Shown: positions 5,830 to 44,321, counted from the stretch's first letter. The stretch is 54,264 nt of DNA from a virus (IMGVR_UViG_3300025141_000126:1-54264); one strand, 5' to 3'. A program made the numbers and translations. The notes: a model not told the origin generated them from the sequence alone.

Positions 5830-6045
5830 ATGAATAATGTAGTCAAAACGACGACGCATGTCAACGCATTCCCTCGCAGTTTCTTCACATACGGGTGTTT
5901 CGCTGTGCATCACGACACGATGGCATGGCATCTCGACAACATCCTAAGTCGCCCCCAGCGTCAAGTGATGGCGAATATGCACCAAGCCAACCCTCTAGCG
6001 GCGGTCTCCGCAGCAGTCTACAGGGGGGTGTATCATGTCCAATAA
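5830..6045 (+). CDS. Small hypothetical protein, possibly first of array A
   Basis: 71 aa ORF downstream of the promoter, overlapping the next start. Confidence 0.45.
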   Translation: MNNVVKTTTHVNAFPRSFFTYGCFAVHHDTMAWHLDNILSRPQRQVMANMHQANPLAAVSAAVYRGVYHVQ

Positions 6046-6241
6046 CAAGTTACCAGACGACACTCATGAGAAGGTCTCTGCAATCATGTGGGATGCGTTC
6101 GACGCAGTCACAAACACATGCCCTGTCTATGCTATTATGCCTACGGAGTGGACTGCAGTGGATCAAGCGACCGAGCGAGAGGGGACAGTTGAACAGGCAC
6201 TAGAGGATGCATTTGACTTTGGAGGAGTGTTTGATGGATGA
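6035..6241 (+). CDS. MDDT-family small protein (array A)
   Basis: MSNNKLPDDTH...; G-rich RBS; ends DG* overlapping the next ATG. Confidence 0.65.
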   Translation: MSNNKLPDDTHEKVSAIMWDAFDAVTNTCPVYAIMPTEWTAVDQATEREGTVEQALEDAFDFGGVFDG

Positions 6242-6410
6242 TACATACGGACTAATCGAGACTTGTACTCTTGCCGTGTACGACCAGTGCAGGAAACTGT
6301 GCCCACTAGATGATATGGTGGACCGCTACTGGAGGCGATGGGAGAGAGCGATCGACTGGAATACTAGCGAGTATACTGGTGAAGAAGCTACGAGGTTAGG
6401 CGATGGATGA
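6234..6410 (+). CDS. MDDT-family small protein (array A)
   Basis: GGAGGAG RBS; MDDTYGLIETC; ATGGATGA overlap. Confidence 0.7.
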   Translation: MDDTYGLIETCTLAVYDQCRKLCPLDDMVDRYWRRWERAIDWNTSEYTGEEATRLGDG

Positions 6411-6591
6411 TACATACAAGCGGATAGAGCAGATCTACAGCAAGGCTCGTGGTGAGTGTGCGATCGGATGTCCGGCCCACTACAAGTTCATGTTCCTTGA
6501 CTCACGCGAGGACAGCGAGATGTGGAATCTTAGGATGGCACTGTCTTCTGGCGTTGGCAATGAAGCCTGGAGGTTACGCAGCGATGGATGA
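6403..6591 (+). CDS. MDDT-family small protein (array A)
   Basis: MDDTYKRIEQI; ATGGATGA overlaps at both ends. Confidence 0.7.
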   Translation: MDDTYKRIEQIYSKARGECAIGCPAHYKFMFLDSREDSEMWNLRMALSSGVGNEAWRLRSDG

Positions 6592-6772
6592 TACAGCACA
6601 GAGGATACGCAACGAGACGCAGAAGGTGTTCGTGCAATGCAGCGAGGAGTGTGGCCCAACGACATGGGGATTTGGACTTGATGGGGTGGGCCAGACCAGC
6701 GTGGAGTGGGCACCGCAGGGATTGATAAGTTGGCAGGTGTATCAGTTGACATCGCCTACCCCGGAACAGTAG
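6584..6772 (+). CDS. MDDT-family small protein (array A)
   Basis: MDDTAQRIRNE; ATGGATGA overlap. Confidence 0.7.
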   Translation: MDDTAQRIRNETQKVFVQCSEECGPTTWGFGLDGVGQTSVEWAPQGLISWQVYQLTSPTPEQ

Positions 6773-7166
6773 AACAAGAAGAATGTGTTATGTGTAAGTT
6801 ACTCCCCCTTGATTCAACCAATGTAGATCGGAGCGAGATGGTACAACCTACCGTAAGCAGTCGTGTCGTTGGTCCATGTACATGGTGCGGGGTGCGGCGG
6901 CTGAACCCGATATCGTTCAGCGGAGTGGTCGGGGGTGCGATACTCACAGCACCCAGACTGCGTGAAAGACTTCGACTAATTCCAGGCAATGCCGTTAGAT
7001 ATTGTACCCTGGTGGCCCGACAGATACACTTAATTGTGTGGGGTCTACGTGGTTGCTCCATAATTGCTCAATACACACAACAAGCCTAGAAGCACAAAAG
7101 TGGACGCCGGATCTACCCTATATCTATAGGGCCGGTAAAGGGGTGAGGTCTAAATCAAAGGAGAGA

Positions 7167-7391
7167 ATGATGCATATGGATACGGAAATTAGGAAGATGG
7201 TCGGCAAGGATGGATGGTGGCACCTACAGAACCTCATCAAGAGCGAGTTCGGCAGACAGGTTGAGCACCACGTCTGGTGGGAGGTCATGAGTCCTGTCGG
7301 TCAGCAGCTACCAGAGAACGAATGGGCAATCGGGCACGTCGGTCGAAGCGTACTGTTTGATGTGATATCACTAGGAGATAACGATGAATGA
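7167..7391 (+). CDS. MDDT-related small protein (array B)
   Basis: AAGGAG RBS; (MMH)MDTEIRKMVGKDGWW. Confidence 0.65.
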   Translation: MMHMDTEIRKMVGKDGWWHLQNLIKSEFGRQVEHHVWWEVMSPVGQQLPENEWAIGHVGRSVLFDVISLGDNDE

Positions 7392-7587
7392 GATGGAGAT
7401 GTTCGCCAGCGATGTCCACCTCTGGGCACTGCTGGGGTTGATACGAGACCACGCCCCAGCGGCTGTAGAGGAAGCTGTATGGAGCGAGTTAAAGCGTGGG
7501 GTCCAGGTCGAGACTATCACGCACCAGATAGCAGTTAGGTCTGGGGTTGAATTGTACGCACTAACGCGAGGAGATAACGATGGATGA
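7384..7587 (+). CDS. MDDT-related small protein (array B)
   Basis: AGGAGATAACG-ATG junction; MNEMEMFASDVHLW. Confidence 0.65.
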   Translation: MNEMEMFASDVHLWALLGLIRDHAPAAVEEAVWSELKRGVQVETITHQIAVRSGVELYALTRGDNDG

Positions 7588-7768
7588 AGCAATCGCCCGG
7601 CTAGTGGGCAAAGACTACCTGTGGGGTATAGATGCTGAACTTGGACAGATGAGTTCAGCGTTGAGCAGGCAGGTCTGGTACGGCGTGAAGTCACCGTCGT
7701 CCCACGAGATGACAATAGAAATACCAGTAGAAAACGGGGTACGGGATCATGTCCGACGAATGGATTAA
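7580..7768 (+). CDS. MDDT-related small protein (array B)
   Basis: AGGAGATAACG-ATG junction; MDEAIARLVGKDYLW. Confidence 0.65.
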   Translation: MDEAIARLVGKDYLWGIDAELGQMSSALSRQVWYGVKSPSSHEMTIEIPVENGVRDHVRRMD

Positions 7769-7946
7769 GCGACTCGGCAGCGATAGCCACTTGTGGAACT
7801 TAGAGCGGGAGATCTCCAAGCATTGCGCAGAGGCTGACTACATTGTCTGGCGCAGCGTAAAAGGCAGTGTCGATCAAAAGCTAGGGAGGCTAGAGAACGT
7901 CGTTCATATCGGGGTCTTTCAACAACAACATTCCATTGGTCCTTGA
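7749..7946 (+). CDS. MDDT-related small protein (array B)
   Basis: MSDEWIKRLGSDSHLW; aligns by eye with the other array B members. Confidence 0.6.
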   Translation: MSDEWIKRLGSDSHLWNLEREISKHCAEADYIVWRSVKGSVDQKLGRLENVVHIGVFQQQHSIGP

Positions 7947-7971
7947 CTTCTAGCCACCCCGCCCCTACGAT
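7943..7971 (+). promoter_or_regulatory. Sigma70-type promoter upstream of the ERF-like gene
   Basis: TTGACT-17-TACGAT. Confidence 0.55.
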
Positions 7972-8004
7972 ACACACATACACCACATTTCTAGGAGAAC
8001 TACC

Positions 8005-8730
8005 ATGTCAGACTCAGGAACCTACGACGCTGGACCTACCTTCTACAAGGCACTACTCGCCGCATGTAAGGAAGTCACCGCACTCGGTCACGACAGCACC
8101 AGCAACAGGTACAAGTACACATCCGCTGAGGCGATCATCGCGTACTCTCGCGACCTGCTCAACAAGCAAGGCATTATTGTCGAACGGCATGAGTATTCAT
8201 TAGGCGAACCCATTAGCGAGAAGGACACTTTCGGCAACGCCTCGATCACGCGCAGTGTCACGGTCATGTTCCGCGTCGTGCATGAAAAAGGGGAGCGCCA
8301 ATACTACACGGGTGTGTTCCCAGCGTGTCTAACGAAGGCCATGCCGTGGGACAAAGCGGTCGCTGCCGCACTCACCACCAGCCTCGCCTACTTCCTGAGA
8401 GATCTCCTACAGATCCCACGCACCGGAGCCGGGGAAACGATGGACGAGCGCAACGACCACCCCGACGAGACACCTGCACCGAAGGGAGCAAAGCATCCGA
8501 AGAGGACAAAGAAGTCTCCCGCTGAGGTGGCCGACGACAAGGCACAGGTCAACGCAGCGAAGGGGCTATGCCTGGAAATGTCAGGGGCAAAGACCCTCAA
8601 GGCACTGGAAGTCCTCCGTGATAAGTTCCATGATGGGAAGATGAACTTCACCCAAGCCCTGACAGGCAAGGTGCGAACGGCGTACCGGAAGCGATTCCGC
8701 GAACTCGGTGGCGTGGTCGATGCGAAGTGA
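8005..8730 (+). CDS. ERF-family single-strand annealing recombinase
   Basis: YKYTSAEAII...LNKQGI and AAALTTSLAYFLRDLLQIP resemble the ERF motifs; AGGAG RBS. Confidence 0.65.
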   Translation: MSDSGTYDAGPTFYKALLAACKEVTALGHDSTSNRYKYTSAEAIIAYSRDLLNKQGIIVERHEYSLGEPISEKDTFGNASITRSVTVMFRVVHEKGERQYYTGVFPACLTKAMPWDKAVAAALTTSLAYFLRDLLQIPRTGAGETMDERNDHPDETPAPKGAKHPKRTKKSPAEVADDKAQVNAAKGLCLEMSGAKTLKALEVLRDKFHDGKMNFTQALTGKVRTAYRKRFRELGGVVDAK

Positions 8731-8923
8731 TGACACTCACACCACCATAGACGTGGTGACCAACCCCAAACCCGGCGGGTATTGTGCAGCTGTAAGCTAT
8801 GTGGTTATCCAAGGCACGGCTTGCGGCGACCTTCTCCACGCCGCTGTCATAGATGGAGTGGAGCATGGAACAGGATCTATTCGAGTTCGCGATACCCCCA
8901 GTACCAGAGGTGAGGTTACCTAA
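8720..8923 (+). CDS. MDDT-family small protein
   Basis: MRSDDTHTTIDVV; overlaps the ERF stop and the helicase 5' end. Confidence 0.45.
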   Translation: MRSDDTHTTIDVVTNPKPGGYCAAVSYVVIQGTACGDLLHAAVIDGVEHGTGSIRVRDTPSTRGEVT

Positions 8924-10553
8924 GCCCGCCTTTGATCCCCGGTTTTACCAGAGCGAGGCAGTAGATAATGCCTTTGAAGCCTGGGATTCTGGTGCTGTGG
9001 GGTGTCTGCTAGTACAAGCAACCGGCACCGGCAAGACTGCGACTGGTTGCTTTATCGTCAAACGCTGGTTAGAGCAGGGGCCGGATTATCGTGTTCTGGT
9101 AGTTCTCCACGAACGGCCCTTGTTCTACCAGTTCTCAGATGACATCGAGAAGATCCTCCGTGTCACCCCCGGTCTAGAGGCAGGAGCAGATCATCGCCTG
9201 CAGCTCCCTATCCCGAAGATCGTAGTGGCGATGCGTCAGTCTCTTGTTGATCGCGTTCGCAACGGGCAGATCGTATCTCGACTTGGCAAGTACGACACCG
9301 ACAAGAAGTACCTCCTGATCCTCGACGAAGCACACAGATACAAGAAGGGCCTGAAGCAGGTCGCTCCGATCCTAGAGCGTTTCACGGATGCTCGCCGGTT
9401 GCTGCTCACCGCCACGCCAGAACGAGGGGACAAGGTTTCGCTCGCTAGTCTCGGGGAAGTGGTGGTCGCTGACTACCCGCACACGTCCCTGGATGGCAGG
9501 CCAAGTGCTTGCGGCGATGGATTTGTCGTTGACTTTGAACAGCATTTTGTCACAATCAATTCAGTCGATTTACAGAAAGTGAAGGGACATAAGTCAAAGG
9601 ACTGGAGTGCAGAGGATCTGTCCGACAAGCTGTCCCAGGTACGTGCCCTGGACGAGATCATCCAGCCGTCACTCGACATCGTACAAGACAAGAGGTCACT
9701 GGTGTTCTGCGTGGATCGCGCGATGAGCAGGGCATTGGTAGATCGGATCAACCACAAGTACATACCGGGTGCAGCGAGATGGATCGACGCCACCCTCCCC
9801 ATGGAAGAGCGGAAGGAAATACTAGCAGCACACAAAGCGAACGAGTTTCAGTTCTTGTGTGTCGTAGGATTATGCAGAGAGGGTTACAACGACCCGTACA
9901 TAGAGGCTGTAGTGTGTGCAAGACCAACGAAGTCAGCGTCACTCGCGGAACAGATGAAGGGTCGCGGGTGCCGTGTATTGCCAGGAGTTATTGATGGACT
10001 GGAGACTCGCGAGGAACGGTTGGATGCGATTAAGAACAGCGATAAGGACCGATGTATCGTCGTTGATCTGGTCGGGGCAACAGGGTTGGCTGGGAATCAA
10101 ACAGTGGCAAGCATCCTCGCCAAGGGACTGCCGGATCATCTCGTCGACCTTGTCACAGAGAGGGCGAATCTCCTTGCCAAAGAAGCCTCAACGGAACTTT
10201 CACTTAAGGAGATCGTCGAGAAGACCGCCGAAGACCTTCTAGAGGAGGACCGCATCGCAGAGGAAATGGTCGAGCGGGAGAGGTTGCGTTACATCGAGAA
10301 TCAAATCGATGCTGCCCGACTTGCTGGTCTTACCCTCGACGTGGACTACACCTCCAAGATAGTAGATCAGGGCGAAGGGACAGTACTAAAATTCAGGCGA
10401 CCTGAGATGAGGGTGAGCAACGGCAAGTACAAAGGCAAACTGTTGTCGCGTGTACCCACTGGCTACATCGAGTTCATGATCACGAAGCTGAAGCCAGGAT
10501 GGTATCGATCGAAATTCCAGGCAGAGTTGAAGTATAGGAGGCCACAGCTATGA
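8853..10553 (+). CDS. Superfamily 2 DEAH-box DNA helicase (ResIII/Irc3-like)
   Basis: PRFYQ, ATGTGKT, DEAH, LLTATPERGD, EGYNDP, QMKGRGCR; C-terminal GKYKG...VPTGY domain. Confidence 0.9.
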   Translation: MEWSMEQDLFEFAIPPVPEVRLPKPAFDPRFYQSEAVDNAFEAWDSGAVGCLLVQATGTGKTATGCFIVKRWLEQGPDYRVLVVLHERPLFYQFSDDIEKILRVTPGLEAGADHRLQLPIPKIVVAMRQSLVDRVRNGQIVSRLGKYDTDKKYLLILDEAHRYKKGLKQVAPILERFTDARRLLLTATPERGDKVSLASLGEVVVADYPHTSLDGRPSACGDGFVVDFEQHFVTINSVDLQKVKGHKSKDWSAEDLSDKLSQVRALDEIIQPSLDIVQDKRSLVFCVDRAMSRALVDRINHKYIPGAARWIDATLPMEERKEILAAHKANEFQFLCVVGLCREGYNDPYIEAVVCARPTKSASLAEQMKGRGCRVLPGVIDGLETREERLDAIKNSDKDRCIVVDLVGATGLAGNQTVASILAKGLPDHLVDLVTERANLLAKEASTELSLKEIVEKTAEDLLEEDRIAEEMVERERLRYIENQIDAARLAGLTLDVDYTSKIVDQGEGTVLKFRRPEMRVSNGKYKGKLLSRVPTGYIEFMITKLKPGWYRSKFQAELKYRRPQL

Positions 10554-10738
10554 GTGGTGTCATGTACCAGATACAAAAGGTCGTGCGGTTTGACCTGGAA
10601 AAAGTACTGGAGAGTCACGTTAACCACAATGTCTCACTCGATGCTCGCATGGGCATGAGATGGGAAGTATACAGGCCCATCGACGAACTGGTAGACGGCG
10701 TTGTATTCTCGGCGGTACGGCAGGAGTGTCGGGAATGA
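10550..10738 (+). CDS. MDDT-related small protein (array C)
   Basis: ATGA overlap; RWEVY motif shared with its neighbours. Confidence 0.6.
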   Translation: MSGVMYQIQKVVRFDLEKVLESHVNHNVSLDARMGMRWEVYRPIDELVDGVVFSAVRQECRE

Positions 10739-10920
10739 ACACCACGCACTTGATACACAAGGCGGTATGGGGCAACGTGGAGGAGATCCTGAATAAACAC
10801 AGCAACCCGAACCTCACCCTTGGTGTACGACTAGAGGTGAGGTGGGCTGTCCATGCAGTGATCGACTCGCAACTAGACGACCATGTGGTTCGTGGCGTAT
10901 GGGAGACCCGCAAGCTGTGA
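10735..10920 (+). CDS. MDDT-related small protein (array C)
   Basis: AGGAG RBS; ATGA overlap; MNTTHLIHKAVW...RWAVH. Confidence 0.65.
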   Translation: MNTTHLIHKAVWGNVEEILNKHSNPNLTLGVRLEVRWAVHAVIDSQLDDHVVRGVWETRKL

Positions 10921-11135
10921 ACGCCAGACACCGGATCAACAATGAACTGACCACTCACATGGAGATAGAACTGAACACAGAGATTGCCTCAGCAGTCAGG
11001 TTTTCTGCGAGGCAGGCATTACGGTGGCCTGCGTATGACTTGACAGAGGTAGAGGTAAACCACCATATTGAACGCACGATATTATCCGAAGTTCGTGTTT
11101 TGCGAACTACCGCCCACCCCCGGAGAGACACATGA
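10917..11135 (+). CDS. MDDT-related small protein (array C)
   Basis: GTGA overlap; GGAG RBS; ...RWPAY. Confidence 0.55.
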   Translation: MNARHRINNELTTHMEIELNTEIASAVRFSARQALRWPAYDLTEVEVNHHIERTILSEVRVLRTTAHPRRDT

Positions 11136-11494
11136 AGATAACGATCCACGAAGCAACTAAGACCCCCATCACAGTGAAGGACGACCGACCGTTCCTCAAG
11201 GAACCATCTAGTGTGTATGTCATCGATGAGACCCGAGGCCTATGGCGTCGAGTCAAACCAAAGGCGTACCAAGACCACAAGATGAGCAGCGACCATACCA
11301 TTCGGGGGGTATACCAAACCCCGGAGAATATCTTCCTGTTCATCCGAGACACCAGCCTAGAGAAGATGTTGCTAGCTGTGTGCGGTCCAGCCCCCTGCTG
11401 CGGTGCAAAAAAAGATCCAGAAAAAGCACTTGACTCTTCGTTCGACGCTTCCTACACTGAATGTAGCGAGGACGAGACGGCAATCGTCGCCTGA
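11132..11494 (+). CDS. Hypothetical protein
   Basis: ATGA overlap; GGAGAG RBS. Confidence 0.55.
   Translation: MKITIHEATKTPITVKDDRPFLKEPSSVYVIDETRGLWRRVKPKAYQDHKMSSDHTIRGVYQTPENIFLFIRDTSLEKMLLAVCGPAPCCGAKKDPEKALDSSFDASYTECSEDETAIVA
11430..11458 (+). promoter_or_regulatory. Sigma70-type promoter for the DUF6745-like operon
   Basis: TTGACT-17-TACACT preceded by A-tracts. Confidence 0.55.
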
Positions 11495-11573: not shown

Positions 11574-12815
11574 ATGCCTACGACGATAAATGAACTCACA
11601 GACGAGCAGACAGCCCAGTTCGGAGAGTTCCGCGACAAGTGGATAGCCAACGGTCTGGACACATCCCCAGCTAACTTCTCACTAGCCGGTGACGGTCTGA
11701 ACGGTTGCTACGGTGCAGCGAAACTCGCTAGCCCCGAGATCGTACTGACATTTGCCAGTCCGTTAGCCACGGTCATCGGCGGCTGCATGGGAAACATCGC
11801 CTTCCCAATGACACGGGGTCTGGCTGCAGGCACTGACATGACGACCGCTGCCGAGAAACAGGATACTAATTCTCGGGAGTCACCACCTGAACTTAAGTCG
11901 CCGCCACATGCCCGACGATCCCCCACTGGGTCAGAGGTTCATCCAGGCGATAAAGCCTTGGCAACGTCCCAAGAGTACATGGACATGGACGATCCAGGGG
12001 AATATGAAGTTCGCCACGCAGTTCTCGACTCTTTCAAGTCCGAGTCCGACTTCAACCTCATCACCGACATCTGGAATGAGACCAGCAACCAGCTCCGAGC
12101 ACAAACCGGTGTGGATGCTGCCCACCCAGCGTTTCGTCGCCTATCCGGTGGTATCAACGCAGAAGTCTGGAAGACTACCAAGGACCGCATCTCTGATGAG
12201 TGGCGTCAATACCGTGGTGGTAATCTCTGGAGTAGTTGGTACGCATACGTCACGTACTTTCGCGATGCGTGCAACTGGGAAAATCCCGCCTTGGAATCCT
12301 TCGCACACGACGAGAAGTGTGCAACCAACGCTGGTTGGATCTGGTACAGCCGCAAGGTAGCTGCCATCTCCGACCGCCCCAACATCCTGCTTCGTAACGA
12401 GGATGGGGAATTGCATTGTGAAGACGGTCCTGCAATGGCTTGGCGTGACGGCTGGGCATTGTGGCGAGTCAATGGCGTAGAGGTGGATGAGCAAATCGTC
12501 ATGACACCTGAGACGCAGACCGTGGAGCAGATGCATGCCGACGATAATGCCGACCGCCAATCCATTCGCATCGAGCGATACGGATGGGCACAGTACCTCA
12601 AGGACTCCGGTGCTAAGGAGGTAGACAAAGCTACGGACGACGTGTCAGGTTGTCCCCAGGTTTTGTACCGTACTCACAATGGTGGACAGCGGCTTGTAGT
12701 CGTCTGTCAGACTGGTCGAGTCTTTGCGATGGGCGTCCCTAGCGACGTTGAGACTTGCGAGCAGGCCCAGAAGTGGTTAGCCCCCGAAGGTATCAATATC
12801 ATCGCTGCGACGTAG
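11574..12815 (+). CDS. DUF6745-like protein
   Basis: N-terminal LTDEQ...RDKWIANGLDTSPA; C-terminal DRPNILLRNEDGELHCEDGPAMAWRDGW...NGVEV...ERYGW; AAGGAG RBS. Confidence 0.75.
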   Translation: MPTTINELTDEQTAQFGEFRDKWIANGLDTSPANFSLAGDGLNGCYGAAKLASPEIVLTFASPLATVIGGCMGNIAFPMTRGLAAGTDMTTAAEKQDTNSRESPPELKSPPHARRSPTGSEVHPGDKALATSQEYMDMDDPGEYEVRHAVLDSFKSESDFNLITDIWNETSNQLRAQTGVDAAHPAFRRLSGGINAEVWKTTKDRISDEWRQYRGGNLWSSWYAYVTYFRDACNWENPALESFAHDEKCATNAGWIWYSRKVAAISDRPNILLRNEDGELHCEDGPAMAWRDGWALWRVNGVEVDEQIVMTPETQTVEQMHADDNADRQSIRIERYGWAQYLKDSGAKEVDKATDDVSGCPQVLYRTHNGGQRLVVVCQTGRVFAMGVPSDVETCEQAQKWLAPEGINIIAAT

Positions 12816-12861: not shown

Positions 12862-13323
12862 ATGAAGACAACAATCGATTCGATTACCGAATGTGCCGCT
12901 CAGATCCACAAGGGCGAGCACACTGAAGTGAAGCCTGGGATGTCTGTTCGTATGTCCGAAGCAGCCGCACCCCAGGACTCTATCCGACAGGGGGATCTCT
13001 ACCTCACTGTCGCGTTGAGCGTTCCCGAGGGCTACACTAAAGCCACGAAGGCGAATGTTCAACTCGTCCCCGGCAACACCAAGGGTGCTCGTCACTGTCT
13101 TGACAGCCTTGAAGGTGTTACCATGTACTACCCGCCGGGTTTCGAGTCGGCTGGTGATTCTTGGGACGCTCTGGAAGGCCCCGTCCTTGAGTTGTCGAAG
13201 GAACGTAAGGTTCTACACCCGACTCACGGACACGTAACGATCCCCGCCGGATTCACCGTTGGTTGCACATACCAGCGGGAATGGGATCAGGAGCAACGTC
13301 GCGAACGTCGCAACGCCGACTGA
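12862..13323 (+). CDS. Conserved His-rich beta protein, recalled as the usual neighbour of DUF6745 genes
   Basis: RQGDLYL...GNTKGARH...HPTHGHVTIPAG...QREWD. Confidence 0.65.
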   Translation: MKTTIDSITECAAQIHKGEHTEVKPGMSVRMSEAAAPQDSIRQGDLYLTVALSVPEGYTKATKANVQLVPGNTKGARHCLDSLEGVTMYYPPGFESAGDSWDALEGPVLELSKERKVLHPTHGHVTIPAGFTVGCTYQREWDQEQRRERRNAD

Positions 13324-30927: not shown

Positions 30928-30998
30928 CGGATCACCTCATAAAAATAGGGGAAGGGTAAACGGTTGGCGCAGTCGCTACACTGCGCGGGCCGGTTGCC

Positions 30999-35941: not shown

Positions 35942-36136
35942 ATGGATATCGACGACACCTATCTAAAGATCCTGCGTGCCACCCGCAACGTCGTAGATGA
36001 TCAACTCGACAAGAACCTCGTGGCTGGTGTCGTTGTGCGGCATGTGCTCAACCGGGTGTCGGATGCTGTTTGGCCCTTGCAATGGATGCTGTACACGGGA
36101 CTCTCCAAGATCTGTAACTCGGAGGTGTACTCATGA
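35942..36136 (+). CDS. MDDT-family small protein
   Basis: GGAG RBS; MDIDDTYLKILRA. Confidence 0.7.
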   Translation: MDIDDTYLKILRATRNVVDDQLDKNLVAGVVVRHVLNRVSDAVWPLQWMLYTGLSKICNSEVYS

Positions 36137-36507: not shown

Positions 36508-36719
36508 GACGCATCATCAAACGTGGCACCGAGCAGAAGCTAGTGCATTTCGTCTACCGTGCGGAGTGCCCTGTCTGCGGCTGTATATTCGAGTTCGACG
36601 ACACTGGTGCTTGGCCCACTACATCGGTGCTCGCTTCTAAGTCACGAGAGACTTGGTGCCCTACCACGAACTGCGCATCGCAGCGGCTGACGGGTTATCG
36701 CACGGACGAGGGGCAATGA
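36504..36719 (+). CDS. Small zinc-ribbon protein
   Basis: MRRIIKRG...CPVCGCIFEF...CP..NC; AAGGAGG RBS. Confidence 0.65.
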   Translation: MRRIIKRGTEQKLVHFVYRAECPVCGCIFEFDDTGAWPTTSVLASKSRETWCPTTNCASQRLTGYRTDEGQ

Positions 36720-36968: not shown

Positions 36969-37574
36969 ATGAAGACAATCGTGATACTATCGGGGGGTGT
37001 GGACTCTACTGTGATCCTCTGGCGGTGCTTAGCTGCGGAGGATGAGGTGAAGGCACTCTCATTCGACTACGGTCAACGACATCGCCGGGAACTCGACGCT
37101 GCCACGAAGATCGCTGCCAAGGCAGGGGTCGAGCATAAGATCGTGGATGTGACAGCATGGGGCGACCTGATGCAGCCTATCCTAAGAGCTCCTGTCCCCC
37201 ACGGCCATTATGAGAGCGAACAGCAGAAGTCTACCGTCGTGCCTAACCGGAATATGGTCTTCATCGCGATCGCTGCCTCCTGGGCTATGTCTGTCGGATA
37301 CGATCAAGTCGCTATCGGTGCCCATGCCGGGGATCATCACATCTACCGGGACTGCCGGGAATCGTTCTTTGCTCCCCTGGAACTAGCACTCTATGCCTCT
37401 GATGAGCGTCAAATACAGATCTGGCGACCGTATGTTCGGCAAACAAAGGCTGAGGTGATCGCTGACGGCAGGGATCTAGCTGCTCCGCTTGATATGACCT
37501 GGACTTGCTATGAGGGCGGGGACGTGCCGTGTGGTAAATGCGGTGCCTGTGTCGAGAGAGAGGAAGCGGAATGA
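36969..37574 (+). CDS. queC: 7-cyano-7-deazaguanine synthase QueC
   Basis: LSGGVDS, FDYGQRH, VVPNRN, YRDCR, TWTCY.G...CGKCGAC.ER. Confidence 0.95.
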   Translation: MKTIVILSGGVDSTVILWRCLAAEDEVKALSFDYGQRHRRELDAATKIAAKAGVEHKIVDVTAWGDLMQPILRAPVPHGHYESEQQKSTVVPNRNMVFIAIAASWAMSVGYDQVAIGAHAGDHHIYRDCRESFFAPLELALYASDERQIQIWRPYVRQTKAEVIADGRDLAAPLDMTWTCYEGGDVPCGKCGACVEREEAE

Positions 37575-38164
37575 AGATCAACGAGAGGTTTGTTTCGTAC
37601 CAGGGATCGGGGCTAATGACCGGTCAGCAGCAGTATTTCGTTCGGCTACACGGTTGCTCTGTACCTTGTCCTATCAAGGCAATGTGCGATGAGTCTGATG
37701 CACTATCGGGCGAACCCAACGAGGAGTTGACCGTGGAGGACGTGGCTATCGCAGCCGCTGAGTCTGGCACCGGTTGGCTGCATCTAACCGGTGGTGAACC
37801 GATGGATCAGCGTAGCGAGGTTGCGTATGCCATCGCTCATGCCCGAGACCGAGACGTGAAGACTCACATTCAAACCAGCGGTGCTGTCTGGTGCCCATCA
37901 GTAGACTACCTCACGGTGAGCCCAAAAGCAGAGAAGGTTGCTCAGAACTACGGCGACGAGATGATCCTTGTCTACGATCCGGCCTGGGTTACGGTTGATG
38001 TTGCGAATGAACTACGGCGATCGACCTCGTTCGGCCTGTACTACATGCAGCCGCTATGGGAGTTTGGCACATGCAACTCAGACAAGACCTTGAAGTTCAT
38101 GGCCGCGCTGAAGGGTTCATGGAGAATTAGCGGTCAACTGCACAAGTACTTGGGGATTCGGTAA
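37571..38164 (+). CDS. queE: 7-carboxy-7-deazaguanine synthase QueE (radical SAM)
   Basis: INERFVSYQGSG..TG...FVRLHGC, TGGEP, TVSPK, YMQP, QLHKYLGIR. Confidence 0.9.
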   Translation: MKINERFVSYQGSGLMTGQQQYFVRLHGCSVPCPIKAMCDESDALSGEPNEELTVEDVAIAAAESGTGWLHLTGGEPMDQRSEVAYAIAHARDRDVKTHIQTSGAVWCPSVDYLTVSPKAEKVAQNYGDEMILVYDPAWVTVDVANELRRSTSFGLYYMQPLWEFGTCNSDKTLKFMAALKGSWRISGQLHKYLGIR

Positions 38165-38931
38165 TGCGGCACTACCACGGCACGCCACTTGGAGGTACAC
38201 GGGAATCGGTGGCGCGATTTGTGATCACAGGGAATCGACACTTCCTTGTACCCTTCCCGAACCCCGACGACCTCTCCGTGATCGCTGAGTCGAGTTGTGG
38301 CTTCTGTGTGGACAATGGTGCTTTCAGTGCCTGGAGATCCGGCAAGCCTGTCACCGACTGGGGACCGTATTACGACTGGTGTACACTGTGGTGCCGTCAT
38401 CCCCGCTGGGATTTTGCGGTCGTCCCAGACGTGATTGGGGGGTGCGAAGAAGAGAATGATTTGCTTGTAGAGGAATGGTTTGCCCGCACCCGACTCGACG
38501 ACGGCACTTGTGCTGAGGGAGCACCGGTCTGGCATCTACATGAATCATTCGATCGACTCAACCGGTTAATGGCCGACAGCCGAATCATCTGCTTGGGTAG
38601 CAGCGGTGAGTATCAGAACCCTGGCACCACCGCTTGGCACGACCGAATGGCAAAGGCTATGGATGTGCTGTGTGATAGCACTGGTAGTCCCAGGCGTAAG
38701 ATACATGGCCTGCGTATGCTGGACCCGGCGATCGTCGCGAGATACCCGCTGTTCAGTGCGGACTCAACGAACGTCGCACAGAACTCTCAACTACTCGGTC
38801 GGTACGGCATGTACAAACCACCTACTCAGGCCCAGCGAAGGGAAGTACTGGCAGCTCGTATTGAGACGACTAGGTCTCCTGGGATCTGGGTGCCTGCCGC
38901 TAAGCAAGAAGAACTATTCTCTCTGGAGTGA
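38164..38931 (+). CDS. TGT/DpdA-like protein, putative DNA guanine transglycosylase
   Basis: HYHGTP, VDNGAFSAW, PDVI.G, PVWH, IHGL, SADST motifs; coupled to queE. Confidence 0.65.
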   Translation: MRHYHGTPLGGTRESVARFVITGNRHFLVPFPNPDDLSVIAESSCGFCVDNGAFSAWRSGKPVTDWGPYYDWCTLWCRHPRWDFAVVPDVIGGCEEENDLLVEEWFARTRLDDGTCAEGAPVWHLHESFDRLNRLMADSRIICLGSSGEYQNPGTTAWHDRMAKAMDVLCDSTGSPRRKIHGLRMLDPAIVARYPLFSADSTNVAQNSQLLGRYGMYKPPTQAQRREVLAARIETTRSPGIWVPAAKQEELFSLE

Positions 38932-38934
38932 CCA

Positions 38935-39120
38935 ATGGACGACACACGCGACAGTATAAACAACATCGCCTGGGAGGCATGGCATCGCCTGCGAGAGGAC
39001 ACCGGCAACTTGATACATACGGTGCCGATGATAAACGCCGTAGCGATGTCAACAGTGCACGGTCCAAGCCAACTCATCGGAGACGAGGTATGGCTTTTCG
39101 CCGGGGGTTACCATGGATGA
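38935..39120 (+). CDS. MDDT-family small protein (array G)
   Basis: GGAG RBS; MDDTRDSINNIAW. Confidence 0.7.
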   Translation: MDDTRDSINNIAWEAWHRLREDTGNLIHTVPMINAVAMSTVHGPSQLIGDEVWLFAGGYHG

Positions 39121-39289
39121 TACCAGCCACAAGATCACCGCCGCCACCAATATATGCTTCCATGGCATCGACTTCACCCCACTCATGCTCGCTAGCATTG
39201 GTATCGTGCGAGGCAGTTGGTTCCGGCGTGACGAAGGTTCTGTTTGGAATGACGAGGTCATGGAGGATATATCATGGATAACACAGTGA
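39113..39289 (+). CDS. MDDT-family small protein (array G; 58 aa, below the ORF-track cutoff)
   Basis: ATGGATGA overlap; MDDTSHKITAATN. Confidence 0.6.
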   Translation: MDDTSHKITAATNICFHGIDFTPLMLASIGIVRGSWFRRDEGSVWNDEVMEDISWITQ

Positions 39290-39459
39290 CGTTGATTGAG
39301 GTCGCGGTGGACGTGCCCTGCGTCGGAGGAAATACGCTAGCTGCTTCTTATGTTCGACAGCACGTTGCCAGTGAACTGCATTCCCCTGCATTCTTCGCTA
39401 TTGATGGAATGCTAGACCCCGAACTCACAGTAGACTGGGAGATAACACGGTGTCTGTAA
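39274..39459 (+). CDS. MDDT-family small protein (array G)
   Basis: GGAGG RBS; MDNTVTLIEVAV. Confidence 0.65.
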   Translation: MDNTVTLIEVAVDVPCVGGNTLAASYVRQHVASELHSPAFFAIDGMLDPELTVDWEITRCL

Positions 39460-39656
39460 TTCACGAAATAGAGCGTACCTGCGGCGTATTCCTGCTGTAC
39501 AATCGCTGTCCACGGATCAAAGAAGCATTTGTTGAAGTCTGGGGAGCAGTGGATAACGACATGGACTTCCAAGTGATCGTCGGGGATCGGTTCATGGGGG
39601 GCATTTGCGCAAAGGTTGGTGAAACAGTAGAACACATAGGAGAAGACAATGGATAG
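39450..39656 (+). CDS. MDDT-related small protein (array G)
   Basis: GGGAG RBS; EVWGAVD motif. Confidence 0.55.
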   Translation: MSVIHEIERTCGVFLLYNRCPRIKEAFVEVWGAVDNDMDFQVIVGDRFMGGICAKVGETVEHIGEDNG

Positions 39657-39870
39657 AGGAATCAGCCTTGATATCGAACGGGCGACCCTAGACAGAACTC
39701 GACTGGCACTCTTGGACGACCTGTCCGCTGCCATCGCTGTGGATGTGCATTTTCAGATCCCTCCCAACTTCTCCACTACATCGGATGTGATCGACTTGCG
39801 AGAGACTGTTGACGACGCGATATATTTCACGCTTGACAGTAACGACGGCAGCGGTACAATAAAGCTGTGA
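39649..39870 (+). CDS. MDDT-related small protein (array G)
   Basis: AGGAG RBS; ATGGATAG overlap; MDRGISLDIERA. Confidence 0.6.
   Translation: MDRGISLDIERATLDRTRLALLDDLSAAIAVDVHFQIPPNFSTTSDVIDLRETVDDAIYFTLDSNDGSGTIKL
39833..39860 (+). promoter_or_regulatory. Sigma70-type promoter
   Basis: TTGACA-16-TACAAT. Confidence 0.55.
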
Positions 39871-40567: not shown

Positions 40568-40750
40568 ATGGATGAAGCAGCAGAGAGGATTGTTGGCATC
40601 GGCGGGTTCCTTGGCGGCATATGCTCAGACATGAGCGCGGCACTCGGCAAGATTCAGGTTAACTCGCCTCACGACCTTCTCTACACAGACGTTGACGACA
40701 TACACATGGCAGTATACACGGACGTTTGGAAAGACATATGGATATTCTAG
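40568..40750 (+). CDS. MDDT-related small protein (array B type)
   Basis: MDEAAERIVGIG, similar to 7580 MDEAIARLVGKD. Confidence 0.55.
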   Translation: MDEAAERIVGIGGFLGGICSDMSAALGKIQVNSPHDLLYTDVDDIHMAVYTDVWKDIWIF

Positions 40751-41382: not shown

Positions 41383-41613
41383 GTGATGACAGCGACTAAG
41401 ATCACAGCACCGTCGAATCTCCCGTGGTTCGGCATAGCCCGCGACACACACAAAGCGATGAGTGCGTGTATAGACCACAATGTCCGTGACAGGGTTTGGA
41501 GTGGTGTGCTACGACGTGTCGATCGGCAAAACCTCGGGATGTCTTGGATTACGCACCCACAAGTAATAAGGGAGGTGGTCAGTGAATTTTCTACAAAGCA
41601 TGTGTCTGAATAG
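41383..41613 (+). CDS. MDDT-related small protein
   Basis: GAGGAGG RBS; RDTHKAM...VRDRVWSGV. Confidence 0.55.
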   Translation: MMTATKITAPSNLPWFGIARDTHKAMSACIDHNVRDRVWSGVLRRVDRQNLGMSWITHPQVIREVVSEFSTKHVSE

Positions 41614-42382
41614 GCACAGCACCGACGTGAAGGCGATGGTGATGTCCGTTGGGGTTGTTCGTCGCGCAGTGAACAACGTCAACTACGACATCAAAACCAA
41701 CGGCGAGGCGTTGGTTATCGACGTTGCCCTGGACCATCTGTCTGGTCCCTTCTTTGATGTCGGTGCGTTCCATGGTGACTGGGGCAGTATCCCCACTGCC
41801 AAAGGTCGCCTGACGTACATGTTTGAGGCTTCCCCAGAGAACTACGATACCTTGGTACATAGCGTACTCCATGAGAACTGCGTGACACACAACGTCGTAG
41901 TCGGAGAGCGTACTCACTCCAAGGTGAACTTCTATCACGTCGAGGATAAGCCGCATACCAGTTCACGCTACGGGATGTTCCTTGACAAGCACATCCCTGG
42001 TTCCAAGAAGTCGCATCACATCCTACCGATGATTACCGGCGACGTGTTCTGCGAGGGTGAGCAGATCCCAGAGATCGGACTGTTGAAGATCGACGTTGAG
42101 GGTGGAGAGATGCCAGTCATCCGTGGATTCAACACGATGCTCTCGACCGGCAATATTGGTGCCATCCAGTTCGAGTACGGCTTGGTCAATATCGAGGCAC
42201 GGACATTCCTGAAGGACTTTTATGACTATCTCACTCCAAGGGGTTTTCTAATCGGCAAGGTCTTTCCAGACGGGGTGGAATTCAAGGCATATGCGTACGA
42301 GGATGAGGACTTCCTTGGCCCTAACTACCTCGCCGTACACAACTCACAGACCGCATTCCTTAACGCTGTGAGGGTAGGATGA
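41582..42382 (+). CDS. FkbM-family SAM methyltransferase
   Basis: FDVGAFHG, FEASP, LLKIDVEGGE, IQFEYG. Confidence 0.85.
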   Translation: MNFLQSMCLNRHSTDVKAMVMSVGVVRRAVNNVNYDIKTNGEALVIDVALDHLSGPFFDVGAFHGDWGSIPTAKGRLTYMFEASPENYDTLVHSVLHENCVTHNVVVGERTHSKVNFYHVEDKPHTSSRYGMFLDKHIPGSKKSHHILPMITGDVFCEGEQIPEIGLLKIDVEGGEMPVIRGFNTMLSTGNIGAIQFEYGLVNIEARTFLKDFYDYLTPRGFLIGKVFPDGVEFKAYAYEDEDFLGPNYLAVHNSQTAFLNAVRVG

Positions 42383-42579
42383 AAGACAATGAGGTATACA
42401 TGGCGTTAGCAAAGCCGTACATCAACTGCATCGATGGAATTCAAGAGGCGTACTCAGGTGAGGTTGTGAATCTCGCCACACGCGAACTCTGGGACACCGC
42501 TGACTTCAGGTGCCGCGCTGCAGTCGAACAGGGTATATTCATTGACACTAGAGTAGGATATCCTTACGACCGATGGTAG
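42379..42579 (+). CDS. MDDT-related small protein (array H)
   Basis: ATGA overlap; MKDNEVY...RELWD. Confidence 0.55.
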   Translation: MKDNEVYMALAKPYINCIDGIQEAYSGEVVNLATRELWDTADFRCRAAVEQGIFIDTRVGYPYDRW

Positions 42580-42749
42580 CTGACACAACCACCACTGATA
42601 TAGCAAAAGCGATAGAGTCATTCGGCAACGCACCCTGGAATAGCCCGGAACTCTGGGCGAAGTGCGAGCCGCTGTACTTCGACGACGCCGGTAGGTTAGA
42701 CACCGCAACAGCTGTCATGCAACAAGCGTGGGACCATCGTGATACATAA
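42573..42749 (+). CDS. MDDT-related small protein (array H; 58 aa, not in the ORF track)
   Basis: MVADTTTTDIAKAI; overlaps both neighbours. Confidence 0.5.
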   Translation: MVADTTTTDIAKAIESFGNAPWNSPELWAKCEPLYFDDAGRLDTATAVMQQAWDHRDT

Positions 42750-42939
42750 CGAGATCGAAAACGCCACAAAGGACTTGGCTGTCAAGGAACTGCAGCGCTG
42801 TTGCAGCGGCGGTCTGGATTCGCTACCCATGAAGTACTGGATACAAAACGACCACAGCGCAGGGAGTAGGCTGAGAATATTTTGGGCTGTAGTACACACA
42901 ATTAACCGGGAGATGAGTGAACATGACTACACGACGTAA
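42739..42939 (+). CDS. MDDT-related small protein (array H)
   Basis: (M)IHNEIENAT...IFWAVV. Confidence 0.5.
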   Translation: MIHNEIENATKDLAVKELQRCCSGGLDSLPMKYWIQNDHSAGSRLRIFWAVVHTINREMSEHDYTT

Positions 42940-43342
42940 CTTCTTGAAGGTCATCACGGCGGCTGCAATCGCCCCGACAATGCCATTGGCTGTTATCCCT
43001 GCGAAGGAGTACTCCACCATATATGGGGTGAGTCTCTTCCAATCAACGGGGGTTTCACACTTCACGGCAAAGGGTATACTGAAGCACCTAGATGGCACGA
43101 TCACATTGAAGAACGAAACAGATCAAGAGATCAAGAGAGGAAGCCTCGTCTACCTCACAAAGATCCAGGCCGGAAAGGAGAAGGCGTGGCTTGACACCGC
43201 ATCGTACATGCGAGGTGGCGATGAATCGGAGTGGGATATGCCCGACGACGAAGCAACATCATCAGAGCAGTCGCTGGTGCAGAAGACACGCAAGATACAC
43301 GAAGAACTGGCACACAACAAAGCAATGGGCTATCGTTCATGA
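42923..43342 (+). CDS. Protein with a twin-arginine-like signal
   Basis: MTTRRNFLKVITAAAIAP; GGAG RBS. Confidence 0.6.
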   Translation: MTTRRNFLKVITAAAIAPTMPLAVIPAKEYSTIYGVSLFQSTGVSHFTAKGILKHLDGTITLKNETDQEIKRGSLVYLTKIQAGKEKAWLDTASYMRGGDESEWDMPDDEATSSEQSLVQKTRKIHEELAHNKAMGYRS

Positions 43343-43539
43343 GAAGCGACAACACTACGGCACTGGTATCGTGTCAATGCGACATTGTCATCGACACACT
43401 ATCATGCGACGACATTGTGTCCAACGAGGTCTGGGCAGTGGTCAACAACCGTTTATTCAACCCTGTTGCTGCTACATTAGCACAATTTTACCCCCCTGTT
43501 ATCACGGAGATCGACGAATGTCTAGTTTCAATCGAGTAG
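43339..43539 (+). CDS. MDDT-family small protein
   Basis: ATGA overlap; MRSDNTTALV...SNEVWAVV. Confidence 0.55.
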   Translation: MRSDNTTALVSCQCDIVIDTLSCDDIVSNEVWAVVNNRLFNPVAATLAQFYPPVITEIDECLVSIE

Positions 43540-43886
43540 TTATTGTAGGTCATGTCACGCGAGACATCGACCTGAAGCACACGCAAAGCGGCACTGCCGT
43601 ATGTGATCTTGGCGTAGCTGTCAACGATCGCGTCAAGAAGAATGAGGTTTGGGTCGATGAGACCACGTTTGTGGATTGCACGGTCTGGGGTCGCAACGCT
43701 GAGACCTCTGCACAGTTCCTGCGGAAGGGTTCACAGGTCTTGGTCGAAGGTCGGCTGAAGATGGACGAATGGGAAACGGACGGTCAGAAGCGATCGAAAA
43801 TGCGCGTATCCGCTGATCGGGTTGTTTTTCTCGGAAGTAAGTCTGATGCCCCAGCAGAGGATGCTCCCGCTGATCTTGCTTGGTAA
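43518..43886 (+). CDS. ssb: Single-stranded DNA-binding protein
   Basis: FNRVVIVGHVTRDIDLK, TTFVDCTVWGRNAE, LRKGSQVLVEGRL; acidic tail. Confidence 0.95.
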   Translation: MSSFNRVVIVGHVTRDIDLKHTQSGTAVCDLGVAVNDRVKKNEVWVDETTFVDCTVWGRNAETSAQFLRKGSQVLVEGRLKMDEWETDGQKRSKMRVSADRVVFLGSKSDAPAEDAPADLAW

Positions 43887-43893
43887 CCTCGTC

Positions 43894-43931
43894 TACCCCT
43901 GCCGAGCATGAGGCTTAGTGGGGGTATTTTT
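43894..43931 (+). terminator. Rho-independent terminator after ssb
   Basis: TACCCC.../...GGGGTA stem followed by a T run. Confidence 0.55.
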
Positions 43932-43944
43932 ATGGAGATACGAC

Positions 43945-44115
43945 ATGGATAACACGAAAGAACTGATTCACGCCCCCTTCGTGCAGTTGCTGTTTGGGAT
44001 GCCGCTTGGGGTTCACCCAGATCATATCGAACGCCGCCCCCACGACGCTGTTGACCATGAGTTATTCACTATGCTCGAAGGGGGTCCGATATGGATGACA
44101 CAAGAGACCTCATAG
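43945..44115 (+). CDS. MDDT-family small protein (array I)
   Basis: GGAG RBS; MDNTKELIHA. Confidence 0.55.
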   Translation: MDNTKELIHAPFVQLLFGMPLGVHPDHIERRPHDAVDHELFTMLEGGPIWMTQETS

Positions 44116-44321
44116 AGAAGCTAATGCACTCCGACATTGATGACGCCACTGAGCAACTCCCGATGCGCGTCTGGTGTCCGGTCTGGGGGCATATGTGCGG
44201 GTTTCGGTCGATGCAGGATGGCGGTACACCTACCCTAGGAATAAGGTCCGACATGGATGTTGCGGCCCAGGCACACGTACGCAGCAAGACTTTCTCCCTC
44301 CGGTATGGGGGTATCGACTAG
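44091..44321 (+). CDS. MDDT-family small protein (array I)
   Basis: MDDTRDLIEKL...RVW..VW. Confidence 0.65.
   Translation: MDDTRDLIEKLMHSDIDDATEQLPMRVWCPVWGHMCGFRSMQDGGTPTLGIRSDMDVAAQAHVRSKTFSLRYGGID

Follow-up and report, generated by a model that had tools for sequence, protein, structure and literature searches.

The stretch of DNA analyzed here, IMGVR_UViG_3300025141_000126:1-54264 (hereafter the window), is the full 54,264-bp record of an uncultivated virus, linear and 56% complete according to CheckV. It encodes about 25-30 small paralogous proteins (hereafter mini-proteins), many of which share a short N-terminal tag, MDDT or a variant of it, and whose bodies resemble the tetrapeptide repeat of repeat-bearing DUF6745 (PF20530) proteins. 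The window also encodes a DUF6745 protein (11574-12815) that appears to have lost this repeat and onto which the mini-proteins may dock as exchangeable subunits.

The sequencing runs that contain the window are marine metagenomes, and variants are present in roughly 20 marine runs. The gene set is phage-like and includes Erf, two helicases, an exonuclease, RusA, SSB, a serine recombinase, a methyltransferase, QueC, QueE, a DpdA-type transglycosylase, a major head protein, and the large terminase (TerL). A simple codon-usage gene model yielded 111 genes, 71 of which encode products of 110 amino acids (aa) or shorter. No relative was found among GenBank phages (50,697 records) by megablast of two array regions or by tblastn of TerL and a 634-aa protein, and searches of IMG/VR with both helicases gave no relatives either. 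TerL relatives with 35-66% identity are common in metagenomes.

Coupled arrays of small genes with a common N-terminal tag

An earlier note on this DNA, made from the sequence alone, had listed by eye about 35 open reading frames (ORFs) as one family. All 35 exist, on both strands and at positions that were exact or a few bases off, and they are found as singletons and in translationally coupled arrays (the latter referred to by letter; all are described individually below); their products measure 41-76 aa, compared to the ~55-75 aa first proposed. Together the 35 candidates occupy 6,864 nucleotides (nt), or 12.6% of the window, in line with the earlier estimate of more than 10%, and the 24 best-supported candidates occupy 8.8%. 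To our knowledge, it is unusual for a paralogous family of ~30 genes to take up about one-tenth of a 54-kb phage genome.

The tag was recovered in 17 distinct ORFs: 8 begin with MDDT, 2 with MDNT, 3 with MDT, 2 with MRSD[DN]T, 1 with MIDNT, and 1 with MDIDDT. Among ORFs that start with ATG, 14 in the window match the pattern M.{0,3}D[DN]T, compared to 2 in 994 kb of sequence from 80 related-phage loci. Further, exact MDDT is common to 8 ORFs, compared to a maximum of 3 ORFs for any four-residue start in 80 control loci. A total of 27 of the 35 starts overlap an upstream stop, and many upstream genes end in (D)G because of the frequent ATGGATGA junction. The codons of D-D-T vary as the earlier note had stated (GAT/GAC for aspartate; ACA/ACC/ACT/ACG for threonine), and MDDT-type starts are also found where no upstream gene overlaps (38935, 35942, 21301, and 23756). 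The varying third codon positions and these four overlap-free starts indicate that the motif is selected at the protein level, such that overlap or ribosome-binding constraints do not wholly account for the MDD starts. The V-W-x-x-V motif proposed for the bodies was likewise recovered, with [VI]W..h present in 15 of the 35 candidates compared to 1 of 39 other small proteins.

Membership of the family

Pairwise BLAST similarity joins neighboring genes only, and held-out profiles were therefore used. In a leave-one-out test, each candidate was scored against a hidden Markov model (HMM) of the other members and compared with 100 of its own shuffles. A total of 24 of the 35 candidates beat 100/100 shuffles, compared to 0 of 39 other small proteins; with at most one shuffle reaching the score, the counts were 28/35 and 0/39. 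When the first 8 residues were removed, 14/35 candidates remained significant (0/39 for the others). With the whole of a candidate's own array held out, 16/35 were significant, and 10/35 were so when the sequences were additionally trimmed. The mini-proteins thus share an HMM and constitute a real family, as the earlier note had proposed. Seven candidates are weak or doubtful (39649, 40568, 42379, 42739, 15361, 20744-20869, and 8720), and the family size is therefore given as about 25-30 rather than 35. It is composed of a core superfamily of ~20 members plus a shell of members that share mainly the tag.

Searches of curated families with 42 mini-protein sequences against Pfam and PHROGs gave only single matches at chance level (best E 0.0067), and four members had 0 matches in NCBIfam and PADLOC. 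A literature search on paralogous small phage proteins returned nothing relevant.

A period of four in the mini-protein bodies

The family is acidic, with a median isoelectric point of 4.9 compared to 7.6 for other small proteins, and it is rich in tryptophan. Pairs of valines at a distance of four residues number 55, compared to 20.5 +/- 4.2 in shuffles (0/1000 reach this count). Valine also recurs at lags of 8, 12, and 16, and is depleted at lags of 3 and 7; the lag-4 signal is absent from the other proteins of this phage. This is a strict x-x-x-V period and not the ordinary pattern of an amphipathic helix, and VWxxV is one tetrad of it. The earlier note, in describing the bodies as amphipathic helices, had missed both this repeat and its link to DUF6745, the two features that are central to understanding the family. 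At the level of single proteins, 15 of the 35 candidates have a tetrad p value of 0.05 or less compared to 6 of 79 other proteins, with 0-9 degenerate tetrad pairs per mini-protein. The signal is present in arrays B, C, D, and E and in 35671, 39649, 41386, 42739, and 15361, and is absent from arrays A, I, and most of G (38935, 39113, and 39450; 39274 is borderline).

An AlphaFold2 (AF2) model of the member encoded at 21089-21301 comprises helices at residues 4-43 and 47-61, with a predicted local distance difference test score (pLDDT) of 79.9 and a predicted template modeling score of 0.36; Foldseek searches of the mini-protein model against PDB and BFVD gave no match. An Atlas neighbor of the same member (best feature score 0.93) was rejected as not credible, the 145 shared features being spread over mixed families. 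A reading of the family as Myb/SANT-like three-tryptophan DNA-binding proteins was also dropped because the family is acidic and has a period of four that is not like that of a helix-turn-helix.

Rapid evolution and gene turnover

Two sister phages were compared with the window, one represented by an 18.4-kb IMG/VR contig (window 34.6-54.2 kb, with an identical TerL) and one by Joint Genome Institute (JGI) contigs (6.1-19.0 kb). Identity to sister orthologues is 32-100% for the family and 85-100% for flanking genes. The pooled ratio of nonsynonymous to synonymous substitution rates (dN/dS) is 0.43 for the family (0.38-0.50; 25 members, 1,589 codons) compared to 0.13 (0.11-0.16) for 33 other genes, which the family exceeds 8-fold in dN (0.156 versus 0.019) and 2.5-fold in dS (0.359 versus 0.143). 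These values identify the mini-genes as coding sequences under relaxed purifying selection, and the genes are mosaic. A dN/dS well below 1 also argues, from sequence comparison, that the genes are translated. The earlier description of an expanded and rapidly diversifying family is borne out by these data, the paralogues being lineage-specific and subject to gain and loss, and its interpretation as tagged subunits is supported in part; positive selection found no support, given that a pooled dN/dS of 0.43 denotes purifying, if relaxed, selection.

The first 8 codons are the most conserved part of the genes (84% amino-acid identity compared to 75-76% for the rest), and the tag is retained in diverged orthologues (50-69% identical). 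A comparison of array content, as the earlier note had suggested, revealed gain and loss of whole genes between the sisters. Missing from sisters are 10550-10738, 43945-44115, and 38935-39120; extra members are found in sisters within array A, near 15361, near 15921, and before 41386. The extra array A member of sister L085, located between the first two genes of the array, matches 43945-44115 over its first 15 codons and then diverges, and loose ends at 6233 and 6402 mark different genes joined at the conserved start. These observations suggest recombination at the tag.

Resemblance to the repeat of DUF6745 proteins

A profile of the family (42 sequences) was searched against 1,835,955,588 proteins, returning 38 hits at E<=1e-3, of which five are the window's own mini-proteins and 33 are long proteins. 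DUF6745 was identified in 16 of the 20 long hits that were scanned with Pfam, and the match lies inside a tetrad repeat. These repeat-bearing DUF6745 proteins consist of a conserved N-domain, 200-300 residues of (x-[AEQ]-V-x)n in which V-W is frequent, and the DUF6745 domain. The tetrad consensus is similar in mini-proteins and DUF6745 repeats, with A or E before V and an enrichment of H after V. Thus, the fused proteins and the mini-proteins share the x-[A/E/Q]-V-x unit and the same gene module; they differ in that the fused form carries its regular repeat in one chain, between N-domain and DUF6745 domain, whereas in the window the repeat of the DUF6745 protein is decayed and short degenerate versions of it are found as ~30 separate MDDT-tagged genes.

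The DUF6745 protein of the window (11574-12815, + strand, 413 aa) matches PF20530 at E 4.9e-23 (81.9 bits compared to a cut-off of 27); it scored 82.9 bits in a genome-level DUF6745 search, and 30 of its 30 Atlas neighbors are DUF6745 clusters. It comprises an N-domain (residues 1-77), a decayed repeat (~85-205), and a C-terminal DUF6745 domain. Both domains typical of the family are present, including the N-domain pattern LTxEQ...KWIxxGLxT...SPL, and the AF2 model has a pLDDT above 90 in both. At the position of the family-typical central tetrad repeat, the sequence is non-periodic, as it is in the sister. All five of the nearest outgroup homologues (33-46% identity) carry the tetrad repeat, which suggests that the window's protein has lost it.

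The gene downstream (12862-13323, + strand) encodes a small RQGD...GHxH protein related to phrog_27831 (hereafter the partner), with 21 BLAST hits to neighbors of DUF6745 genes (best E 5.7e-40). In 77 of 106 loci, a partner-family gene is found no more than 4 kb from DUF6745, and of 65 direct hits, 59 are adjacent to it in the same orientation. DUF6745 and partner thus form a tight two-gene module across diverse phages. No Pfam match or PDB sequence relative was found for the partner family. For the DUF6745 protein, NCBIfam and PADLOC returned nothing, a PDB sequence search returned 0 hits, and Foldseek gave no match at E<=1e-3; the best match by VIA had a Z of 5.1, which is in the chance range for helical parts. 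No paper in the literature searched mentions DUF6745 or PF20530.

DUF6745 is mostly a phage domain, with Atlas clusters that are 51-97% viral and over 100 IMG/VR loci. In one cyanobacterial Atlas cluster (62 proteins), DUF6745 occurs together with leucine-rich repeats (LRRs; LRR_4 in 89% and LRR_8 in 81%), a hint that the variable part may be a recognition module. In the IMG/VR loci L089-L115, many DUF6745 genes are at or near contig ends, perhaps because assemblies break at the 12-nt periodic repeat, in which case the repeat lengths recorded in databases may not be reliable. Of 12 records to which the DUF6745 model was applied, comprising the window and 11 TerL relatives, a match was obtained for the window alone. 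Mini-proteins were likewise not found in the 11 TerL relatives, five of which are at least 90% complete; a positive control on the window genome gave 28 matches.

Tagged arrays beside repeat-less DUF6745 genes in other phages

A total of 105 IMG/VR loci with a DUF6745 ORF were divided into 74 that bear the repeat and 31 that lack it. The locus scan was made with smaller alignments, the 17-sequence alignment being too divergent. Arrays of at least two mini-ORFs with strict tetrads, a criterion that would miss degenerate mini-proteins like those of the window, were present in 4 of the 31 repeat-less loci and in 0 of the 74 repeat-bearing loci (Fisher p 0.0066). In the four loci (L187, L193, L182, and L157), the arrays lie inside the DUF6745/partner module. 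L187 encodes a 310-aa repeat-less DUF6745 gene (Pfam E 3e-50), followed by ~17 coupled mini-genes and then by the partner gene. Its mini-genes all start with MK[TI]LGKPV, and some of their bodies are non-tetrad, as in arrays A, G, and I of the window. L193 encodes 8 mini-proteins of the form MIDPGPCV...SLEEES. Starts are shared by 8 ORFs in the window (MDDT), 9 in L187 (MKTL), and 9 in L193 (MIDP), whereas no start is common to more than 3 ORFs in any of the other 105 DUF6745 loci or of the 80 control loci.

The arrays of these four loci are like those of the window in being tandem, coupled ORFs of 50-90 aa with a shared N-terminal tag, bodies ranging from tetrad to diverged, and a DUF6745 gene and partner nearby. 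They differ in their tags (MKTLGKPV, MIDPGPCV, and MNNII), in having far more regular repeats, and in being contiguous with the DUF6745 gene, whereas the window family is found at nine or more sites on both strands. The phages that carry them are unrelated by G+C content (33-63%). Of this broader and so far undescribed arrangement, the window family is the instance with the greatest dispersal and divergence.

A predicted complex of mini-protein and DUF6745 protein

A complex model of the DUF6745 protein (11574-12815) with the mini-protein encoded at 10735-10920 scored 0.84, compared to 0.00 for the best of three controls. A score of 0.84 is reached by 58 of 80 solved complexes and by 2 of 110 mismatched pairs, these counts being rough here since custom alignments were used. 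Docking runs agreed in at least 96% of contacts, with a partner-chain pLDDT of at least 87. In the model, 44 of the 61 residues of the mini-protein touch the DUF6745 protein, at the N-domain (residues 3-28, 45-51, and 63-68) and at the start of the DUF6745 domain (203-303). Contacts with the lowest predicted error involve L6, I7, and A10 of the tag and V35, V39, and I43, which form a valine stripe. The model supports binding of this mini-protein to the DUF6745 protein. The earlier suggestion of a shared docking N-terminus is consistent with these structural predictions and with the comparative data, namely the tag being the best-conserved part of the genes and arrays in other phages having tags of their own.

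Individual arrays and neighboring genes

Leave-one-out results are given below as the number of shuffles reaching the score of the gene. Array A (6035-6241, 6234-6410, 6403-6591, and 6584-6772, + strand) consists of four coupled mini-genes, all of which beat 100/100 shuffles; three start with MDDT and overlap by ATGGATGA. It belongs to a tag-only class with Cys-x3-Cys bodies devoid of valine tetrads (0-1 V/I tetrad pairs), and it is not significant with the tag trimmed and the array held out. Its orthologues in sister L085 have 46-98% identity and a dN/dS of 0.24-0.35. Array B (7167/7176-7391, 7384-7587, 7580-7768, and 7749-7946, + strand) comprises four coupled mini-genes with a VWxxV core; leave-one-out values are 0/100, also when trimmed, and 0-1/200 when trimmed with the array held out, and two genes have tetrad p values of 0.000 and 0.002. 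Orthologues are 65-95% identical, with a dN/dS of 0.23-0.36 for three of them (none for 7749, where dS = 0). Between the two arrays (6646-7196, 549 nt), the sisters have ~820 unrelated bases encoding a 126-aa basic ORF; bins 6696-7043 are uncovered by reads in four runs, and a contig joins across this region with 823 other letters. Both arrays directly follow 994-5712 (+ strand), where tail genes would be expected. That gene encodes a 1,572-aa protein at the usual position of a tape-measure protein; it has no tape-measure match and a sub-threshold match to ParB_N only.

A doubtful MRSDDT member (8720-8923, + strand) has a leave-one-out value of 1/100 and of 35/100 when trimmed, such that the tag alone scores. 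It overlaps the end of Erf by 11 nt and the start of a helicase by 59 nt, shares the MRSD[DN]T start with 43339, and is identical in the sister, so that no dN/dS could be calculated. Within the helicase gene (8865-10553), at 10041-10092, the sisters and three further runs have ~930-970 extra bases, and the helicase protein match ends at residue 398 in the sisters; the insert could be an intein, intron, or homing element that has no counterpart in the window.

Array C (10550-10738, 10735-10920, and 10917-11135, + strand), located immediately 5' of the DUF6745 module, comprises three coupled mini-genes with the most regular valine tetrads (p 0.002, 0.004, and 0.024) and a pairwise BLAST E of 4.5e-8. 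The first of these genes is absent from the sister contigs and from three further runs (joint 10554>10740). Between array C and the DUF6745 gene lies a gene for a 120-aa protein (11132-11494, + strand) that is 100% identical in the sister and has no Pfam or PHROG match. A weak singleton with a GTG start and the sequence KRDTTY (15361-15567, + strand) has a leave-one-out value of 4/100 and a tetrad p of 0.042; the sister, whose orthologue is 72% identical (dN/dS 0.57), carries an additional ~170 nt immediately 5' of the gene.

Array D (- strand) includes 20566-20754 (MIDNT), 20922-21110 (MDT), and 21089-21301 (MDDT), all with leave-one-out values of 0/100, as well as the doubtful 20744-20869 (3/100). 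The gene at 21089-21301 is the best-scoring member and matches 44091-44321 at a BLAST E of 2.6e-6. A possible phage transcription factor of 103 aa that contains sigma-70 region 4 (Pfam E 8.2e-7) is encoded by a convergent gene (20301-20612, + strand), the 3' end of which shares 47 nt with the mini-gene 20566-20754. Array E (23181-23756, - strand), 3' of the second helicase, comprises three coupled mini-genes (MDDV, MDT, and MDDT) with leave-one-out values of 0/100 full and trimmed, 0/200 for all three when trimmed with the array held out, and tetrad p values of 0.000-0.010.

The window encodes other small proteins as well. Two neighboring genes for proteins of 60-61 aa (30381-30745, - strand) are mutual paralogues (BLAST E 7e-9) with no relation to the MDDT family. 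Small proteins of a second class, zinc-ribbon-like and with many CxxC pairs, are encoded at 25311-31229 (- strand) and 36133-36719 (+ strand), with examples at 25311-25517, 26204-26413, 26836-27111, 30084-30272, 30999-31229, 36133-36507, and 36504-36719.

A 139-aa protein rich in V/I tetrads (35255-35674, + strand; 10 tetrad pairs compared to 3.1 expected, p 0.000) is encoded directly 5' of a member and was not included in the earlier list. It has no Pfam or PHROG match, its orthologue is 87% identical (dN/dS 0.35), and it is possibly a larger relative of the mini-proteins. Two members follow on the + strand, 35671-35874 (MITSIKTQIE) and 35942-36136 (MDIDDT, without upstream overlap), both with leave-one-out values of 0/100; their orthologues in sister G001 have 79% and 39% identity and dN/dS values of 0.53 and 0.52.

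Array G (38935-39870, + strand) comprises five coupled mini-genes (MDDT, MDDT, MDNT, a GTG-start MSVIHEIE, and MDRG), with leave-one-out values of 0-1/100 for the first four and 5/100 for 39649. Its dN/dS is 0.27-0.55, and its nucleotide identity to G001 is 75% compared to 95-98% in the flanks. It sits after the 7-deazaguanine genes QueC (36969-37574), QueE (37571-38164), and the DpdA-type transglycosylase (38209-38931). These genes and the mini-gene 38935-39120 form a block (36971-39109) that is absent from G001, which is otherwise 95-98% identical to the window; DNA modification is therefore variable within the phage population.

Two singletons follow on the + strand. The first, MDEAAERIVG (40568-40750), is weak, with leave-one-out values of 7/100 and, trimmed, 2/100, and its orthologue is 62% identical (dN/dS 0.19). 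The second (41386-41613) is untagged and has a strong tetrad signal (p 0.002), a VW core, and leave-one-out values of 0/100 full and trimmed; in G001, an extra paralogue lies just 5' of it. Array H (42379-42939, + strand) comprises three coupled small genes, of which 42573-42749 is supported (0/100) and 42379 (23/100) and 42739 (17/100) are weak; it shows no divergence signal because it is 98-100% identical in G001. An MRSDNT member between a gene for a 139-aa protein and SSB (43339-43539, + strand) has values of 2/100 and, with arrays held out, 0/200; it has 76% identity in G001, with a dN/dS of 1.37 that is uninformative given the few changes. Array I, just 5' of the structural genes (+ strand), consists of 43945-44115 (MDNT; 1/100), which is absent from G001, and 44091-44321 (MDDT; 0/100), whose orthologue is 57% identical (dN/dS 0.30).

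Candidate mechanism and alternative explanations

The observations are accounted for with moderate confidence if the mini-proteins are exchangeable subunits that dock onto the repeat-less DUF6745 protein. The family comprises ~25-30 lineage-specific, acidic, Trp/Val-rich helical proteins of ~60-70 aa, encoded in translationally coupled arrays, whose bodies are short degenerate runs of x-[A/E]-V-[W/H/R], the repeat of the DUF6745 central region. By this explanation, tag and valine stripe would anchor them in the cleft that separates the N-terminal from the C-terminal domain of 11574-12815, and they would thereby provide in trans a variable repeat module that is built in cis into the proteins of other phages. 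Many different small surfaces could then be presented on one conserved platform, formed by the DUF6745 protein and its partner (12862-13323). The most likely role, by analogy with the systems discussed below, would be the recognition or neutralization of variable host proteins such as defense systems.

Several observations weigh against this explanation. The docking is a single model of one member, and interface residues are not significantly enriched in invariant DUF6745 positions (11/73; Fisher p 0.07, and 0.27 within folded domains). An hhalign comparison of the mini-protein profile with DUF6745 proteins gave a probability of 25% (E 7.8e-4; 0.14% for a TerL control), the family HMM scored 3.0 bits on the decayed center of 11574-12815, and the similarity could amount to a simple periodicity that both happen to have. 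Roughly one third of the members (arrays A and I and the first three genes of G) have the tag only, without valine tetrads, and most arrays lie far from 11574-12815, on both strands. Strict arrays are missing from 27 of the 31 repeat-less loci, where several or many of the DUF6745 ORFs are short fragments. No RNA run was listed for 6000-11200, and the structure searches made gave no fold or function for either DUF6745 or the mini-proteins.

The mini-proteins could instead be independent host-takeover or anti-defense effectors, each with targets of its own and no tie to DUF6745, the tetrads then stemming from common ancestry with a DUF6745 repeat or from convergence on a simple helical design. 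Small, acidic, helical proteins encoded in early and replication regions on both strands, and evolving fast with gene turnover, are consistent with such an explanation, and the remoteness of most arrays from 11574-12815 and the weak hhalign support for homology fit it as well. It is harder to reconcile with a complex model that scored 0.84 where controls scored 0.00, or with arrays that occur inside the DUF6745/partner module of L187, L193, L182, and L157 and only where the DUF6745 gene is repeat-less; it is considered rather unlikely.

A second alternative holds that the mini-proteins are packaged in the virion and ejected, with the N-terminus serving as a capsid-targeting sequence. Many tags end in I-E or L-I-E, which we take to resemble a prohead-protease site, and arrays A/B and I border the structural block. 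In having a short conserved tag at the N-terminus of otherwise diverse small proteins, the family also resembles the internal proteins IPI-III of phage T4, which are described as diverse, defense-countering proteins that vary between related phages and share only a short conserved capsid targeting sequence, with at least IPI* blocking a host restriction enzyme (PMC3012670). The mini-proteins have no sequence similarity to IPI-III, and most arrays are located among replication and recombination genes on both strands and not among late genes. Moreover, a cargo of ~30 distinct proteins would have no precedent, tags change from phage to phage in step with the DUF6745 genes, and none of the window's genes was identified as a prohead protease. 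Packaging is accordingly viewed as improbable. That the ORFs are artifacts, mostly untranslated and with MDD starts produced by stop/start junctions or ribosome-binding constraints, is very improbable and largely refuted already: the 27 overlapping starts, several of them via ATGGATGA, which forces M-D and a (D)G-stop, would favor it, but the bootstrap interval of the pooled dN/dS is well below 1, four MDDT starts are overlap-free, third codon positions vary, and both the profile similarity without the first 8 residues and the tag in diverged orthologues persist.

Possible implications for phage counter-defense

The nearest tested analogue of the arrangement described here is gp54 of mycobacteriophage Tweety (together with gp57 of Che8 and gp51 of PMC). 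These proteins are described as having unique ends that flank 15-48 tetrapeptide repeats (48 A-A-x-x repeats in gp54), with two positions invariant and two variable, W, G, and Q being among the variable residues (PMC2884959). Mutants in repeat number escape a prophage-encoded defense, and the protein thus acts as a tunable counter-defense (PMC9262239). Repeat-bearing DUF6745 homologues similarly have tetrapeptides with two fixed and two variable positions between unique ends; the window's DUF6745 protein has no such repeat, the gp54 repeat is A-A-x-x and not x-A-V-x, and a split mini-gene form has not been reported for gp54. No homology between gp54 and DUF6745 was detected by hhalign (probability 0.14%), nor did tblastn with a DUF6745 protein find Tweety.

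The occurrence of fused and split forms, the two-fixed/two-variable tetrads, and the LRR-bearing DUF6745 cluster point to a variable recognition module. It is tentatively possible that DUF6745 and its phrog_27831-type partner constitute an undescribed phage platform with a hypervariable valine tetrapeptide repeat as its target-recognition part, either fused inside the DUF6745 protein or split off as tagged plug-in mini-proteins, the two architectures being interchangeable. The window would be the extreme split form, in which one platform could take up any of ~30 fast-evolving, recombining mini-subunits and so gain a combinatorial repertoire against variable host defenses. If so, the platform would be a functional parallel to the repeat-tuned counter-defense of Tweety gp54, a precedent that makes a counter-defense role of the mini-proteins directly testable. 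If the docking holds, it would provide a first handle on DUF6745 and would represent a new mode of diversification, in which a conserved platform is combined with a genomic library of tagged plug-in subunits in place of a single mutating protein.

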